Source: Actinomycetota bacterium
GTDB lineage: Bacteria; Actinomycetota; UBA4738; HRBIN12
Direction: 5' to 3'
DNA: 34,539 nt
Assembly: GCA_040902755.1 (NCBI GenBank)
Contig: JBBDWS010000053.1
Location: 1 to 34,539 of the forward strand
In this document: piece after piece, positions 8,322 to 29,832 of the stretch
Position numbering within the stretch: the stretch's first letter is position 1
Layout of the letters: every line of letters begins with the position of its first letter
Made by a program: the position numbers and the translations under genes
Notes under the pieces: model-generated
Database searches by the model: none
Seen by the model: only the letters and a program-made list of their open reading frames with translations
What the model was told of the DNA's origin: nothing

Positions 8322-8905
8322 GCGTCTCTCCCCTCGAGCAACGCTTCCACGTACTTCGCGATCACGTCCACCTCCAGGTTCACGGGGTCCTTCAGTTGGG
8401 CGGACCCGAGGGTCGTCGCCGCCAGCGTGTGCGGGATCAGGGCGACCGCGAACGTGTCGCCGTCGAGCGCGGCCACCGTCAGGCTCACGCCGTCGACGCA
8501 GACGGAGCCCTTCTCGACGAGGTAGCGGCGAAGGTCCTTCGGCGCGCGGATCGTGACCCACGCAGCGCCGTCCTTCTCCGGGGCGACCTCCACGACCTCG
8601 CCCACACCGTCCACGTGACCTTGCACGAGGTGCCCGCCGAGGCGGCTGGCCAACGTGAGCGGTCGCTCGAGGTTCACCGGGTCGCCCTGGGAGAGGCGCG
8701 CGAAGCTCGTCCTGCGAAGGGTCTCCTCGGACACGTCGAACGCGAGGTGGGCGTCCGATCGCTCGACGACCGTGAGGCACACACCGTTCACCGAGACAGA
8801 GGCACCGACCTCCGCGTCGGAGGTCACGGTTCGACATCCCACAGCGAGCCGGGATCCGCCGACCTCGCGCACGACCCCTCGCTCCTCAACGATCCCGGTG
8901 AACAT
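8318..8905 (-). CDS. ribE: Riboflavin synthase (alpha chain)
   Basis: 195 aa, MFTGIVEERG...VNGVCLTVV... with the duplicated lumazine-binding repeat. Confidence 0.93.
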   Translation of the reverse strand: MFTGIVEERGVVREVGGSRLAVGCRTVTSDAEVGASVSVNGVCLTVVERSDAHLAFDVSEETLRRTSFARLSQGDPVNLERPLTLASRLGGHLVQGHVDGVGEVVEVAPEKDGAAWVTIRAPKDLRRYLVEKGSVCVDGVSLTVAALDGDTFAVALIPHTLAATTLGSAQLKDPVNLEVDVIAKYVEALLEGRDA

Positions 8906-9986
8906 CGGCCTCCACCCTCAGATCCTCTCCCACGCGGTCGAACGAGCGCACCCGCAGGCCCACGGCGTTCGCGATCGGCGCGAACCCGCGCCCTCCGAGG
9001 ACGGTCGGCGCATCGGTGCCTCCGACCAGCTTCGGCGCGAGATAGACGACGACCTTGTCGACGAGGCCGTCCTCGATCGCGGCCCAGGCCAGCGTAGGCC
9101 CGCCCTCGAGCAGCACCGCCTGGACGTCCCGCTTCCCAAGGTCCGCAACGAGCTCGCCGAGCGGCACGCGCTCGCTCTCGGGCTCGTAGACGACGACCTC
9201 GGCACCGGCGGCCCTCCACTCCTCGCGGCGCTCCGAAGATGCGAGATCGGTGGTCGCGACGAGCGTCGGCGCGTCCTCGTCGAACAGATCACCGGTCGCC
9301 GGGACGCGCCCCCGCGCGTCGACCAGGATCCGGAGCGGCGCGCGTCCCCGATATCCGGGCAGTCGGACCGTCAGTGCGGGATCGTCGGCGAGCGCCGTCC
9401 CGGCTCCGACCACGATCGCGTCGGAGGACGAGCGCAGACGATGCACGTCGGCCCTCGCCGCCTCGCCCGTGATCCATCGCGACGAGCCGTCGCGGGCGGC
9501 GACCTTGCCGTCGAGCGAGGCGGCCATCTTCCACGTGACGAATGGCAGCCCCGTCCGCACGTGCTTCAAGAAAGCCTCGTTCTGGCGAGCCGCCTCGTCG
9601 CCGAGCGTGCCGAACTCAACCTCGATCCCGTGTGACTGAAGCTTCGCGAACCCACGGCCGTCGACGATGGGGTTCGGGTCGCGCATCGCGGAGACGACGC
9701 GGCCGATCCCCGCGGAAACGATCGCGTCGGTGCACGGGCCGGTGTGGCCGAAGTGGTCGCACGGCTCCAACGAGGTGAACAGGACCGCTCCCCGAGCGCG
9801 CTCGCCGGCCGCCTCGAGGGCCCGGATCTCCGCGTGCGGCGTCCCGGGCCCCTCGTGCCAGCCCTCGCCGGCGACACGGCCATCGGAGGTAACGACGACG
9901 GCGCCGACCATGGGGTTCGGGGACACCAGTCCCCGCCCACGCTCTGCGAGCGAGATCGCCCGCTCGATGTACACCTCGTCGGACAC
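8886..9986 (-). CDS. ribD: Bifunctional diaminohydroxyphosphoribosylaminopyrimidine deaminase / 5-amino-6-(5-phosphoribosylamino)uracil reductase
   Basis: Track ORF 8886..10145 trimmed to GTG 9986 (VSDEVYIERAISLAERG...). Motifs HAEIRAL and LEPCDHFGHTGPC, plus the reductase domain. Confidence 0.92.
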   Translation of the reverse strand: MSDEVYIERAISLAERGRGLVSPNPMVGAVVVTSDGRVAGEGWHEGPGTPHAEIRALEAAGERARGAVLFTSLEPCDHFGHTGPCTDAIVSAGIGRVVSAMRDPNPIVDGRGFAKLQSHGIEVEFGTLGDEAARQNEAFLKHVRTGLPFVTWKMAASLDGKVAARDGSSRWITGEAARADVHRLRSSSDAIVVGAGTALADDPALTVRLPGYRGRAPLRILVDARGRVPATGDLFDEDAPTLVATTDLASSERREEWRAAGAEVVVYEPESERVPLGELVADLGKRDVQAVLLEGGPTLAWAAIEDGLVDKVVVYLAPKLVGGTDAPTVLGGRGFAPIANAVGLRVRSFDRVGEDLRVEADVHRDR

Positions 9987-10051
9987 GTTGGCACCCCGAT
10001 CACGGGGCGCAGGTGGGGAGGGCAGGAGGCGGCAGCAAGCCGCTGCCGGCA

Positions 10052-10186
10052 CCGCCCGTCCTCTCCCATCCCGACTCTCACGGTCGGTCCCGGAATCGCG
10101 CCGGGTCCACCCTCGACCGGCTGCCGAGGGGTTGCGGACTGTCACCGCCGGTGGGGACTTGCACCCCGCCCCGAAGACGAGCTTCG
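10052..10186 (-). promoter_or_regulatory. FMN riboswitch (RFN element) in the ribD leader
   Basis: The minus strand reads CGUCUUCGGGGCGGGGUGCAAGUCCCCACCGGCGGUGACAGUCCGCAACC...GGACCCGGCGCGAUUCCGGGACCGACCGUGAGAGUCGGGAUGGGAGAGGACG. This matches the conserved RFN core. P1 is formed by 10173..10179 and 10057..10063. Confidence 0.9.
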
Positions 10187-10265: not shown

Positions 10266-11201
10266 TCACTCGATCTTGCGGCGGTCCACGGCGTAGGACG
10301 AGCTCGATTCGCGCTTGGCGAACTGCTTCATCTCCGTGGCGACGGCGACCGCCTCGCCGTAGTGCTCGAACATACGGACGTTCGTGGTCGCGATCCCGAC
10401 CGAGACGCCCGCGAGCGGCAGCTTCTGCATGACGCCCTTGCGGTCCTCCACCTCGACGTAGCCCCGCTGGAGGTCTTCCTGTTCGTAGAACTCGTGGATG
10501 CCGCCGTCGAAACGCTCGACGATCCGCTTCGCAACGTCCTCGGCCACCTCCGGCGGAACGACGGCCACGAAGTCGTCGCCGCCCACGTGCCCCACGAACC
10601 CCTCGGAGCCGGCGAACTCGACGACGGCGTCCTGGATGATCCTCGCCGTCGCCTGGATCAGCCGGTCGCCGCGCACGAACCCCTTCTGGTCGTTGTACGC
10701 CTTGAAGTTGTCGAGGTCGCTGTACAGCACGGCGAACGGGCGCTTGTCACGCACTCCCCGCTCGATCTCCTCCTGGATCCGGATGTTGCCCGGGAGTCCG
10801 GTGAGCGGCGAGAGGTTGCGCATCTCCTTGGCCCGGCGAAGCGTTCCCTTCACGCGCGCGAGGAGCTCGATCGGGTCGAACGGCTTGATGATGTAGTCGT
10901 CCGCGCCCGCCGTGAGGCCGAGCACCTTGTCGGTCGAGAGCGCCTTGGCGGTGAGCATGATGATCGAGGCGTTCGCCGTCTGCGGATTGCGGCGCAGGCG
11001 CTGCGCGACCTCGAACCCGTCGATCCTGGGCATCATCACGTCGAGCAGGACGAGGTCGGGCCGGAGCGCCGCCGCGCGTTCGAGCGCCTCCTCGCCGTCG
11101 GTCGCCACCGAGACCTCGTACCCCGCGCTCCGCAGGTTCACCTCGACGAACCGGGCGATGTCGGCGTCGTCGTCGACGACCAGGATCGTCTCGGGCATCA
11201 C
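10266..11201 (-). CDS. Response regulator with receiver and GGDEF-type output domain (signature GGDDF)
   Basis: 311 aa. Receiver motifs ILVVDDD...LVLLDVMMP...MLTAK. Output domain motifs LTGLPGNIR, DLDNFKAYNDQKGFVRGDRLI, HVGGDDFVAV. Confidence 0.9.
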   Translation of the reverse strand: MMPETILVVDDDADIARFVEVNLRSAGYEVSVATDGEEALERAAALRPDLVLLDVMMPRIDGFEVAQRLRRNPQTANASIIMLTAKALSTDKVLGLTAGADDYIIKPFDPIELLARVKGTLRRAKEMRNLSPLTGLPGNIRIQEEIERGVRDKRPFAVLYSDLDNFKAYNDQKGFVRGDRLIQATARIIQDAVVEFAGSEGFVGHVGGDDFVAVVPPEVAEDVAKRIVERFDGGIHEFYEQEDLQRGYVEVEDRKGVMQKLPLAGVSVGIATTNVRMFEHYGEAVAVATEMKQFAKRESSSSYAVDRRKIE

Positions 11202-19884: not shown

Positions 19885-20538
19885 TCACCGAACGGATGCG
19901 AGGATCGCGCGCGCGACGCCGGCGGGATCGTTCGACGACGTGATGGGCCGACCGACGACGAGGTAGTCCGCCCCGCGTTCGACCGCTTCCTCCGGCGTCA
20001 GGATGCGAACCTGGTCGTGGCCGTTCGATCCGGCGGGACGGATCCCGGGAACGACGACGTACGGTTCCTCGCCGACGACCTCGCGCACCGTCGACACGTC
20101 CTCGCCCGAGACCACCATCCCGCCCGCGCCCGCCGCCTTGGCCTCGAACGCGAGCGAGGCGGGCGACGCGAGACCCTCTCCCGCGAGGCTCGACAGAACG
20201 GTGACGGCCACCACGACGGGCACGGGATGACCGGCCTCACCCGCTCCGGCTTCGGCGCCGCGCACCGCGGCCGCGATCATCGCCTCGCCTCCGAGCGCGT
20301 GCACGGTGAACATCGCCGCGCCGATCCTGCCGACGTTGAAGGACGCTCGTTCGACGGTGTTCGGGATGTCGTGAAGCTTCAGGTCCAAGAAGACCGGGCC
20401 GTGATCGCGCACCCGCGAGACCGACACGGGACCGTACCCGGTGAAGAGCTGGAGCCCGACCTTGAACATCCCCACCTGGCCCGCCAGACGTTTCGCGAGG
20501 TCCTCGGCGGCATCGAGGTCGGGCAGGTCGAGCGCCAC
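19885..20538 (-). CDS. pyrF: Orotidine 5'-phosphate decarboxylase (5' end uncertain; may start at ATC 20565)
   Basis: Motifs VVALDLPD, DLKLHDIPNTV and VVGRPI. The first canonical in-frame start downstream of the pyrD stop is GTG 20538 (giving M-ALD...). The conserved strand PENPLVV lies upstream of that GTG. Confidence 0.85.
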   Translation of the reverse strand: MALDLPDLDAAEDLAKRLAGQVGMFKVGLQLFTGYGPVSVSRVRDHGPVFLDLKLHDIPNTVERASFNVGRIGAAMFTVHALGGEAMIAAAVRGAEAGAGEAGHPVPVVVAVTVLSSLAGEGLASPASLAFEAKAAGAGGMVVSGEDVSTVREVVGEEPYVVVPGIRPAGSNGHDQVRILTPEEAVERGADYLVVGRPITSSNDPAGVARAILASVR

Positions 20539-20564
20539 GACAAGCGGATTCTCCGGCCGCGGGA

Positions 20565-21524
20565 TCAGGACACGACCTCGGGCTCGGGAACCTCGCCCTG
20601 GATCCGGAGCCGGCCTCGGAGATCGCCTGGCGAGGCGATCCCCTTGGCCTTCAGATAGGCCTGGATCCCGCGGGCGATCTCGACCGGGGCCGACGGGTTC
20701 ACGAGCATGGCGGTGCCGACCTGCACGGCCCAGGCGCCCGCGAGCAGGAACTCGACCGCATCCTCTCCTGTGGAGATCCCCCCGACGCCCATGATCGGGA
20801 CGTCGGGCATCGCGCGGGCGACGCGATAAACGGCGCCCAGGGCGATCGGCTTGATCGCCGGGCCCGACAGACCGCCCACCGGGACGGCGAGCCTCGGCCG
20901 CAGACGGTCGACATCGACCGCGAGCGCGGGCACCGCATCGATCAGCGTGAAGCCGTGCGCGCCGTCTCGCACGCACAACCGGGCGGTCTCGACGAGGTCC
21001 GGGAGCAGCGGCGGCAGCTTCACGAAGACGGGGAGCCGCGAGAGGCGCGACACCGCACCGACCACCTCGTGGATCCGGTCCGGGCGCGCGTAGAACGGCT
21101 CGCCTCCGCGTTCCACGTCCGCTCCGGACAGATACACCTCCAACGCGTCGATGCCCTCGAGGTCGTGCAGCGCGTTCGCGATCCGGATGTACTCCTCGAG
21201 GCTGGAGCCGGCGATCGACACGATCACCGGCAGTTGCGCCTTGCGCAGCCGAGGAAGGTCTTCCGCAACGAACTCGTCCAGGCCGGGGTTCTGCAGACCG
21301 ACGAAGCTGACCATTCCCGAGGCGGTCTCGGCGGCCCTCGGCGTGGGTGCGCCCTTCGACGGCGCCAGCGTCAGAGTTCGCGTGACGACGCCGCCGAGAC
21401 GATGGAGATCCACCAGACCGGGGCCGTCCCGCCGCGTCGCGAGACAGCCCGCCGCGGCCAGCACGGGGTGCGCGAACCGAAGGCCGTTCAGGTCGACGCC
21501 GAGCGAGGACCTCAACCGGGCCAC
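20565..21524 (-). CDS. pyrD: Dihydroorotate dehydrogenase class 1B catalytic-subunit homologue with substituted active-site residues
   Basis: 319 aa. Collinear with PyrD-B (ETASGM, GLQNPG, GGLSGPAIKP, GVGGI, QVGTA), but NISCPN is replaced by YLSGAD and GNP by GAP. Confidence 0.8.
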   Translation of the reverse strand: MARLRSSLGVDLNGLRFAHPVLAAAGCLATRRDGPGLVDLHRLGGVVTRTLTLAPSKGAPTPRAAETASGMVSFVGLQNPGLDEFVAEDLPRLRKAQLPVIVSIAGSSLEEYIRIANALHDLEGIDALEVYLSGADVERGGEPFYARPDRIHEVVGAVSRLSRLPVFVKLPPLLPDLVETARLCVRDGAHGFTLIDAVPALAVDVDRLRPRLAVPVGGLSGPAIKPIALGAVYRVARAMPDVPIMGVGGISTGEDAVEFLLAGAWAVQVGTAMLVNPSAPVEIARGIQAYLKAKGIASPGDLRGRLRIQGEVPEPEVVS

Positions 21525-22380
21525 GCCTTCACGACGGGGAAGCCTTCGGGGGGCGTCGGCGCCATCCGCGGCTCATCCAGCAACCACCGGTCCCACAGGA
21601 TGCGCGCCGGGTTGAACACCGGACCCTCGGTGCACGCGCGGACGTTGTCGTACCCGGAGCCGTCTTTCCGGATCAAGGGGACCGTGCACGTGAAGCACAG
21701 GCCGATGCCGCATGCCATCGGCTCCTCCACCGTGACCTGCGAGGGTATCTGCCGCTCCATGCACAGCTCGGCGATCGCGCGCAACGTTGAGCGATCGGCG
21801 GCCGCGTAGACGACCTGCGCTCGCGTCGACTCGAGCATCGACGGCATCACGTCCAGCACGCTCCCCCGCTCTCCGAGGCTGCCGTCCGACGTCACGATCG
21901 CGATGGTCTGCGACAGACGCTTCCCCTCGATCGGCTTGAACACGTGCTCCTGCGTCTCGGCGCCCACCACCATGTCGACCCGCTTGCCGCGCGCCCGCAG
22001 CTCCTGGGCGAGGAAGTAAAGAGGCGCAGCACCGTGGCCCTCCGCAACTAGGAGGCAGGTGTTGAGCTTGGTCGGATAGGCGAACGCCTTGCCGAGCGGC
22101 CCGATGACGTCGAGGAACTGGTGCGCCTTGATCTCGGCGAGCCAAGCCGTGCCGCGTCCCTGCGGATCGAACACGAACTCCAACGTCCCCGCCCATCCCC
22201 CACGCCGCGACGCCTGATGGATGGAGAAGTGCCGGCGAAGCAGGAAGGCGCGCTCCGGCGGCATCCCGATCGACAGGAACTGACCCGGCCGGACCCGGTC
22301 GGCAAGCTCCGGCGCGACGATCGTGATCGAGTGGTACACCCCGAGATTGCGCGCGTTCAGCACCTCCGCGCGGACCCGTT

Positions 22381-22384
<4 letters not shown>
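21512..22384 (-). CDS. pyrK: Dihydroorotate dehydrogenase electron-transfer subunit (FAD / 2Fe-2S)
   Basis: 290 aa. RRHFSI FAD motif and C-terminal [13 protein letters not shown]...ACTEGPVF cluster cysteines. GTGA overlap with the carB stop. Confidence 0.9.

Positions 22385-25769
<3,385 letters not shown>

Positions 25770-25770
<1 letters not shown>

Positions 25771-28206: not shown

Positions 28207-28210
<4 letters not shown>
26915..28210 (-). CDS. pyrC: Dihydroorotase
   Basis: Track ORF trimmed to GTG 28210 (GTGA overlap with the pyrB stop). [15 protein letters not shown]...[10 protein letters not shown]...ATDHAPH. Confidence 0.94.

Positions 28211-29832
<1,622 letters not shown>

Follow-up and report, generated by a model that had tools for sequence, protein, structure and literature searches.

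The pyrimidine operon in the 34,539 nt stretch of Actinomycetota DNA analysed here (the window; contig JBBDWS010000053.1) contains a pyrK-pyrD pair, called pyrK'-pyrD' below, which is orthologous to the class-1B dihydroorotate dehydrogenase (DHODH) that depends on nicotinamide adenine dinucleotide (NAD), and which occupies the same operon slot. Very probably, the PyrK'/PyrD' complex has been displaced from its ancestral task, is not a DHODH and is nevertheless retained by selection. The pair showed two marks of a pseudoenzyme, the loss of catalytic and substrate-binding residues and the combination of purifying selection with long-term retention, and a second, class-2-type DHODH gene was found on another contig of the same genome.

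The class-1B ancestry of pyrD' was evident in profile searches, in which its product matched PF01180 with 191 bits and passed the cut-off of the NCBIfam equivalog NF005574 (304.5 versus 269 bits), while scoring 63 bits lower there than a canonical relative and remaining just under the cut-off of TIGR01037 (264.2 versus 270). The AlphaFold2 model of the protein (predicted local distance difference test score, 80.5; predicted template modelling score, 0.83) had as its best Foldseek matches in the PDB the PyrD subunit of Lactococcus lactis DHODB, with template modelling (TM) scores of 0.85-0.89, and in this model the fold is intact. HMMER alignments to the solved L. lactis structures of DHODB (1EP1, 5UE9) and DHODA (1JUB) had no gaps around any motif. 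The collinearity with class-1B DHODH noticed in an initial annotation of this DNA was thus upheld by profile, model and alignment.

In these alignments (DHODB numbering first), the pyrimidine site was changed at Lys48 (Arg49 in PyrD'), Asn72 (Ser73), Asn132 (Tyr131), Asn137 (Asp136) and Asn197 (Asp196). The catalytic Cys135 and the adjacent Pro136 corresponded to Gly134 and Ala135, so that the loop N-I-S-C-P-N read Y-L-S-G-A-D, and the Asn of GNPTPR was Ala59. Lys170 (Lys169 here) and the motifs ETASGM, GLQNPG, GGLSGPAIKP, GVGGI and VQVGTA were kept. The initial annotation had proposed this combination, a replaced catalytic Cys and replaced orotate-binding Asn residues next to retained motifs for flavin mononucleotide (FMN), and the alignments to all three structures confirmed it. 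The annotation had allowed for a structure-guided alignment to bring a Cys or Ser and the Asn residues back into the site, but the residues aligned there were Gly134, Ser73, Tyr131, Asp136 and Asp196. It had also described the Lys of VKATT as changed, which was correct as to the replacement, although this residue was not simply lost: VTRTL aligned V-T-R with M-V-K, giving a conservative Arg.

What pyrD' had in common with class-1B enzymes was therefore the overall sequence and fold homology, Lys170 and the glycine-rich phosphate motifs (GGLSG, GxGG and GTA), whereas the catalytic base of the class (Cys135, or Ser in some members) and the pyrimidine-binding Asn72, Asn132, Asn137 and Asn197 with Lys48 were missing. 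Judging from these residues, PyrD' belongs to the PyrDB lineage by descent and has the DHOD fold but fails the defining catalytic features, and it is not to be classified with the class-1B DHODH enzymes. The binding of FMN by PyrD' is predicted from the retained motifs.

The changed site was not peculiar to the window. Of the best 150 cluster representatives (50% identity) from a search covering 1.8 billion proteins, 118 read exactly KNNNSCPNKN at ten diagnostic positions, and the exceptions were the query and its nearest clusters. When 99 canonical PyrDB cluster representatives were compared with 154 members of the pyrD' clade, the positions changed in pyrD' were 100% conserved in the former and the changed pattern recurred in the latter; on these alignments, the residue changes are far beyond chance. 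Conservation in canonical PyrDB reached 93% or more at 35 sites, and the clade kept 23 of them at 90% or more, kept five partly and lost seven. The seven were exactly K48, N72, N132, C135, N137, N197 and T198, which make up the dihydroorotate/orotate and catalytic site. At the former catalytic position, which is Cys in 100% of the canonical sequences, the clade had A (35%), G (22%), S (22%), C or T. The phylogenetic distribution of the variant, which the initial annotation had proposed to check, was thus that of a recurring site pattern with a variable residue at the base position itself. Positions 59, 131 and 134 varied freely within the family, while Arg49 (94%), Ser or Thr at 73 (91%) and Ser133 (80%) were frequent in the near clade. 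On the FMN side, Lys169 was present in 100% of the clade, S220, G221, G248, G249 and G270 in at least 99%, and G218 in 78%.

The partner protein had changed in a corresponding way. PyrK' contained the four 2Fe-2S cysteines (positions 225, 230, 233 and 251) and the RHFS motif, but its NAD-binding loop GGGIG (GGGxG) read AEGHG and Y-x-C-G-P read YAAAD, corresponding to the substitutions G115E, C195A, G196A and P197D. The earlier description of an intact PyrK was hence right for the cysteines and the RHFS motif and wrong for the NAD motifs. When 76 canonical PyrK sequences were compared with 34 from the window's family, all Fe-S cysteines were invariant in the family, R51, G76/G78 and P96-L97-G98 were kept, and T79 and the Ser54 of RxxS were found in 85% and 71% of the members. 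The lost residues were G115 (Glu in 94%), C195 (Ala in 94%), G196, P197 and M200, that is, the two nicotinamide-nucleotide motifs. Together, the losses in PyrD' and PyrK' indicated that both substrate sites had been specifically removed and the three cofactor sites preserved.

The C-terminus of PyrK' (window 21512-21600, minus strand) extended as a tail about 30 residues past the end of L. lactis PyrK and contained a family-conserved motif ending in WPg. In the canonical sister families, the tail was shorter and showed no conservation. This tail may be a new interaction surface.

The genome of the window, a metagenome-assembled genome (MAG) of 2.05 Mb and 88.5% completeness, contained a second strong DHO_dh gene (181.6 bits) on another contig (C132:39930-40954, locus L002/L117), so that the suggestion in the initial annotation to look for a class-2 pyrD led to a positive result. 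Its product had GNPRPR, MTNAMGLPNPG, LNASCPN and CSNT, and by these motifs its active site is intact. The N-terminus had a helical domain (MGWYR..FFALPPE.AH) predicted to be of the membrane/quinone type. The base was the Cys of LNASCPN, in place of the usual Ser of class 2, and LNASSPN occurred in one of 30 relatives. A pyrE-like gene (96.7 bits versus a cut-off of 106.8) adjoined the class-2-type gene head-to-head and was divergently transcribed. A stretch of 34 codons of locus L002 was masked as N, and a homologue search with the protein returned close relatives of the same lineage only.

A third gene with the DHOD fold was located on contig C11 (84-944, locus L003), directly downstream of a gene of the pyruvate:ferredoxin oxidoreductase type. 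It matched DHO_dh weakly and family NF005741 with 448 bits, its loop ELNVYFIAAD was without Cys, and weak matches of this kind were found in several relatives.

In order to compare both DHODH genes across the lineage, the window's genome and 60 relatives were considered (61 genomes of the same order, which is the only order of its GTDB class). The operon PyrD homologue was present in 59 of the 61, and pyrK lay directly upstream at 57 of these 59 loci, the other two being one truncated remnant and one locus cut at a contig end. In families f5, f7 and f8, the PyrD site was intact (K-L-N-N-S-C/S-P-N-K-N), this gene was the only strong DHO_dh match, and the class-2-type gene was not found. The class-2-type gene was found in families f1, f2, f3 and f6, and all of these had a degenerate PyrD, each in a different manner. 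The site read R-V/S-S/T-N-C-C-P-S-K-H in f6 and T/I/V-S-S/H-N-A-C-P-N/S-K-N/G in f2, and every site residue was lost in f1 and f3, position 196 being Gly or Ala and position 73 Trp in the deeper f1 members. The single f4 genome had a degenerate PyrD, and the class-2-type gene was not found in it. Altogether, 44 of the 49 genomes of the degenerate clade carried the class-2-type gene, and the five misses compared with 4.5 expected from incompleteness. The association between degenerate PyrD and the class-2-type gene had a Fisher p of 3.6e-9. An independent sample gave the same picture: among 17 Actinomycetota genomes in the matches listed by a contig scan, which was not an exhaustive census, a class-2-type match occurred in three of three with degenerate PyrD and in none of 14 with canonical PyrD.

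A PyrK tree parted the degenerate and canonical groups with 100% support in the Shimodaira-Hasegawa-like approximate likelihood ratio test (SH-aLRT). The substitutions G115E and C195A in PyrK were common to all degenerate families and the losses in the PyrD site differed from family to family, suggesting that the coupling to NAD was lost early and that the dihydroorotate site was eroded progressively. At the level of the class, the pyrD gene was kept in 123 of 124 genomes of at least 90% completeness.

A Ser replacing Cys at the base of an otherwise canonical class-1B PyrD (K-L/N-N-N-S-S-P-N) was observed in family f8 (L159, L161 and L164), where this PyrD was the only DHODH found, and in other phyla (L018, L020, L044 and L058). 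The Cys or Ser base is thus not strictly class-defining, with a class-2-type enzyme carrying Cys and class-1B enzymes carrying Ser.

In one f1 genome (G029; locus L174, contig C18), pyrD' was reduced to its C-terminal 94 residues, located upstream of pyrF, and pyrK was missing. We considered this as a natural loss of pyrK'-pyrD', but its carB, on another contig (C10:32820-34961), was split over several frames and ended at residue 752; this broken gene pointed to a probable misassembly or indel errors, and the genome was not used as evidence. Half-length pyrD' matches were also seen in G080, G123 and G125.

Selection on the pair was evaluated from the ratio of nonsynonymous to synonymous substitution rates (dN/dS), obtained by the Nei-Gojobori method for close genome pairs only (dS of about 0.07-0.7). 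Distant pairs were left out, since their dS reached a plateau at about 0.6-0.8 under a strong bias in GC content at third codon positions and was saturated. The dN/dS values were 0.057-0.106 for pyrD' and 0.07-0.13 for pyrK' within the window's family, with 0.05 for pyrK' in one f2 pair. In the same genome pairs, the C-terminal part of carB gave 0.04-0.19 and pyrF gave 0.04-0.17, while an off-frame reading of neighbouring genes, an accidental negative control, gave an omega of about 1-3. The pyrK'-pyrD' pair is therefore under strong purifying selection and is as constrained as carB and pyrF. PyrD' evolved at about 1.35 times the rate of PyrK' in degenerate families and at 1.02 times in canonical families, which would fit a pocket released from constraint in a protein that is constrained elsewhere.

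The comparison of residues, genomes and substitution rates together suggests that PyrK'/PyrD' is probably no longer the DHODH of these bacteria. In one large branch of this uncultured class, a class-2-type DHODH encoded elsewhere in the genome would have taken over the oxidation of dihydroorotate. PyrK' would then have lost its NAD site early and PyrD' its dihydroorotate site progressively, with different residues affected in each family, while the FMN, flavin adenine dinucleotide (FAD) and 2Fe-2S residues would have stayed under strict constraint. The two proteins may still fold as a PyrK2PyrD2-like flavo-iron-sulfur complex with its cofactors, kept for a role that involves neither dihydroorotate nor NAD. 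The complex could relay electrons to new partners or acceptors, or it could be a scaffold or a regulatory subunit expressed together with the pyrimidine genes. We lean slightly towards the redox relay, because all three cofactor sites and not just the fold were conserved.

Several observations weigh against this displacement. The class-2-type protein was below every NCBIfam equivalog cut-off (best, 234 versus 267 bits; TIGR01036, 180 versus 200), it is itself divergent and carries Cys where Ser is usual for class 2, and its role as a DHODH is deduced from the intact active-site residues. All the genomes compared were MAGs, so that the 'absence' of a gene is a statistical statement. Within the pyrD' clade, Ser was found at the former base position in about a fifth to a third of the members and Cys in some, and the Arg that replaces Lys48 could still contact a carboxylate. 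Several of the residues in contact with the isoalloxazine ring are the same lost Asn and Lys residues, and the affinity or potential of FMN may be altered. Finally, Asp136 (99%) and Asp196 (94%) were newly conserved in the near clade, which goes beyond pure decay and hints at a new ligand.

The conserved acidic residues are what a neofunctionalised enzyme might show, in which a pocket formed by Arg49, Tyr131, Asp136 and Asp196 would bind a new small-molecule substrate and PyrK' would exchange electrons with a partner other than NAD; the acidic pair would then suggest a substrate bearing an amino group or a cation. The frequencies of Asp136, Asp196, Arg49 and Ser/Thr73 in the 154 near relatives, the strong purifying selection and the retention of all cofactor sites are consistent with such an enzyme. 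However, the pocket was not uniform across the lineages that retain the pair (f2, f6 and the deeper f1 members differ), positions 59, 131 and 134 were free to vary, and there was no conserved base residue. Since the pocket differs among lineages which all keep the pair, its retention does not seem to depend on any one new small-molecule site, and we regard neofunctionalisation as possible but doubtful. It is likewise only a tentative proposal that PyrK'/PyrD' is a flavo-iron-sulfur complex so far unrecognised as an oxidoreductase or electron relay, which evolved from DHODH-B after its displacement, with the pocket rebuilt around Arg49/Tyr131/Asp136/Asp196 and the NAD site rebuilt for another donor or acceptor. 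In that case, the donor or acceptor might be the lineage's own class-2 DHODH with its unusual Cys, and expression together with the pyrimidine genes would have persisted.

Much less probable is that PyrD' still works as a DHODH, as the main enzyme or as a second one (for instance, under anaerobic conditions), by an unusual mechanism with Ser133, Asp136 or Asp196 as the base. The score above the NF005574 cut-off, the preserved operon position between carB and pyrF, the conservation of Ser133, an Arg49 that could replace Lys48, and the existence of Ser-for-Cys class-1B enzymes in the sister family f8 and in other phyla could all be read in its favour. Nevertheless, all four pyrimidine-ring Asn residues were replaced around a hypervariable base position, the NAD motifs of the partner were lost, and degeneration was found only where an intact-site class-2-type DHODH was present and never where PyrDB was the sole DHODH; the scores on TIGR01037 and, relative to the canonical protein, on NF005574 point in the same direction. 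Of the possibilities raised in the initial annotation, the DHODH with an unusual mechanism was hence rendered unlikely by the missing substrate residues, the free base position, the altered PyrK' and the frequent class-2-type gene, while the pseudoenzyme retained with PyrK and the repurposed flavoprotein both remain, and the two taken together are what the evidence supports. It is also very improbable, slightly more so, that the genes are decaying relics whose frames stay open only through the coupled translation of carB, pyrK', pyrD' and pyrF via overlapping stop and start codons. The overlapping gene junctions, the faster rate of PyrD' in degenerate families, and the truncated or frameshifted matches in G029, G080, G123 and G125 (possibly assembly errors) would agree with decay. 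Against it, the dN/dS of 0.06-0.13 was as low as in carB and pyrF, where an off-frame reading gave about 1 or more, arguing that translational coupling is not what keeps the pair, and 23 of the 35 family-invariant sites and all Fe-S cysteines were conserved over the whole class.

The pyrK'-pyrD' pair lies in a pyr gene block with the typical actinobacterial arrangement (Table 1). The genes followed each other on the minus strand in the order pyrR, pyrB, pyrC, carA, carB, pyrK', pyrD', pyrF, an S13-like H2TH protein (mihF position), gmk, rpoZ, coaBC, metK and priA. The pyrD' open reading frame (ORF) had 319 codons counted from the GTG at 21524. An alternative TTG at 21515, overlapping the pyrK' stop as TTGA, would give 316 amino acids, the length of most homologues, and is likely the true start. 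Overlaps of 4 nt with carB and of 13 nt with pyrD' (4 nt with the TTG start) were found for pyrK'. A reading of the plus strand over the pyrD' interval contained no stop codon, but it had no PyrD motifs either and was rejected, placing the gene on the minus strand. At the pyrD'/pyrF junction (20538-20567, minus strand) the start of pyrF was uncertain: its first canonical start was the GTG at 20538, 27 nt past the pyrD' stop, and a start further upstream, abutting this stop, was also possible.

Table 1. Position of pyrK'-pyrD' and of the neighbouring pyrimidine genes in the window.
Feature	Position	Strand	Basis
pyrD' (class-1B PyrD homologue with degenerate dihydroorotate/orotate site)	20565-21524	minus	Homology and residue-by-residue alignment, fold model, dN/dS
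pyrK' (PyrK homologue)	21512-22384	minus	2Fe-2S cysteines and FAD-side residues kept, NAD(H) motifs lost
carB (upstream operon gene)	22381-25770	minus	1129-aa ORF; as query, 76-85% identical pieces in a relative
pyrF (orotidine monophosphate decarboxylase; downstream gene)	19885-20538	minus	PF00215, 162 bits
pyrR	29139-29696	minus	Pfam Pribosyltran
pyrB	28207-29142	minus	Pfam OTCace_N/OTCace
pyrC	26915 to about 28200 (inner start approximate)	minus	Pfam Amidohydro_1/DHOase
carA	25770 to about 26900 (inner start approximate)	minus	Pfam CPSase_sm_chain/GATase

Elsewhere in the window, an FMN riboswitch (RF00050, 95.5 bits; 10054-10182, minus strand) was detected in front of ribD, a gene with RibD_C and deaminase domains (ORF 8886-10145). 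The riboswitch overlapped the first codons of the longest ORF, implying that ribD in fact starts at a codon further downstream. An ordinary-looking gene (10266-11201, minus strand), located between the rib leader region and rsmB/fmt, encoded a fusion of a response-regulator receiver with a GGDEF domain.

The distribution of these genes amounts to a natural experiment in enzyme displacement, in which the DHODH-B site is intact where it belongs to the sole DHODH, and the substrate sites are lost, without deletion of the gene, beside a class-2-type enzyme. The retention points to a second role of the PyrK/PyrD flavo-iron-sulfur complex, which could be that of an electron relay, a scaffold or a regulator. 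The name given to the pyrD' protein by the Joint Genome Institute (JGI) was 'dihydroorotate dehydrogenase (NAD+) catalytic subunit'. With this name and the score above the NF005574 cut-off, metabolic reconstructions would credit these soil Actinomycetota with an NAD-linked (anaerobic-capable) DHODH which they probably lack.

Compared with the class-1B systems, that is, the PyrDB-PyrK heterotetramer of L. lactis DHODB (1EP1-1EP3, 5UE9 and 5KSW) and PyrD/PyrK of Bacillus subtilis, PyrD' has the same fold, 37-38% identity, the FMN phosphate and ribityl motifs and Lys170. The pyrK-pyrD pair is likewise located between carB and pyrF, with the four 2Fe-2S cysteines and the FAD-side residues in the partner. 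It differs in that pyrD' is without Cys135, Asn72, Asn132, Asn137 and Asn197 and has Arg for Lys48, in that pyrK' is without GGGxG and CGP, and in that pyrD' is not the only DHODH homologue of its genome.

No description of a degenerate PyrDB/PyrK pair was found in full-text searches of the literature. The nearest analogue there was that of the fungal class-1A DHODH-like dihydrouracil oxidases, which carry the annotation DHODH, occur alongside a class-2 DHODH and fail to complement a pyrimidine auxotrophy (PMC10395836). The fungal enzymes, however, keep the catalytic Cys and a highly conserved active site and act on dihydrouracil, whereas the whole pyrimidine site is gone in PyrD'.

PyrK-type FAD/2Fe-2S modules and DHOD-type FMN barrels also serve as electron-transfer modules outside DHODH, in NfnA (of NfnAB), SudB (of SudAB, sulfide dehydrogenase), AsrB and PreT/PreA. 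Nicotinamide sites or catalytic Cys/Asn residues are still present in those proteins, and the context of PyrK'/PyrD' is purely that of a pyr operon. The scores to such repurposed families were far below their cut-offs (PreA, NF006183, 119.5 versus 335; NF004862, 115.5 versus 220). The assignment of pyrD' as the NAD-dependent dihydropyrimidine dehydrogenase subunit PreA was rejected on this score and on the lack of the C-terminal 4Fe-4S ferredoxin domain, the match ending at profile position 318 of 422. NF005741 (PRK07565), a family of unknown function, has the DHOD fold without the catalytic Cys as well, but it is a separate, old family, and pyrD' reached only 72.2 bits against its cut-off of 303.

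Within the pyrimidine pathway, the best functional analogy is PyrC', an inactive dihydroorotase-like subunit which, in the work of Schurr et al. 1995, was reportedly required for the assembly of the aspartate transcarbamoylase of Pseudomonas. There too, selection maintains a dead copy of a pathway enzyme and the reaction itself is carried out by another protein, which makes PyrC' a precedent for a scaffold in this pathway. PyrC' has a different fold and belongs to a different step, and the structural role demonstrated for it is a proposal for PyrK'/PyrD', where two subunits and three redox cofactor sites have been conserved.

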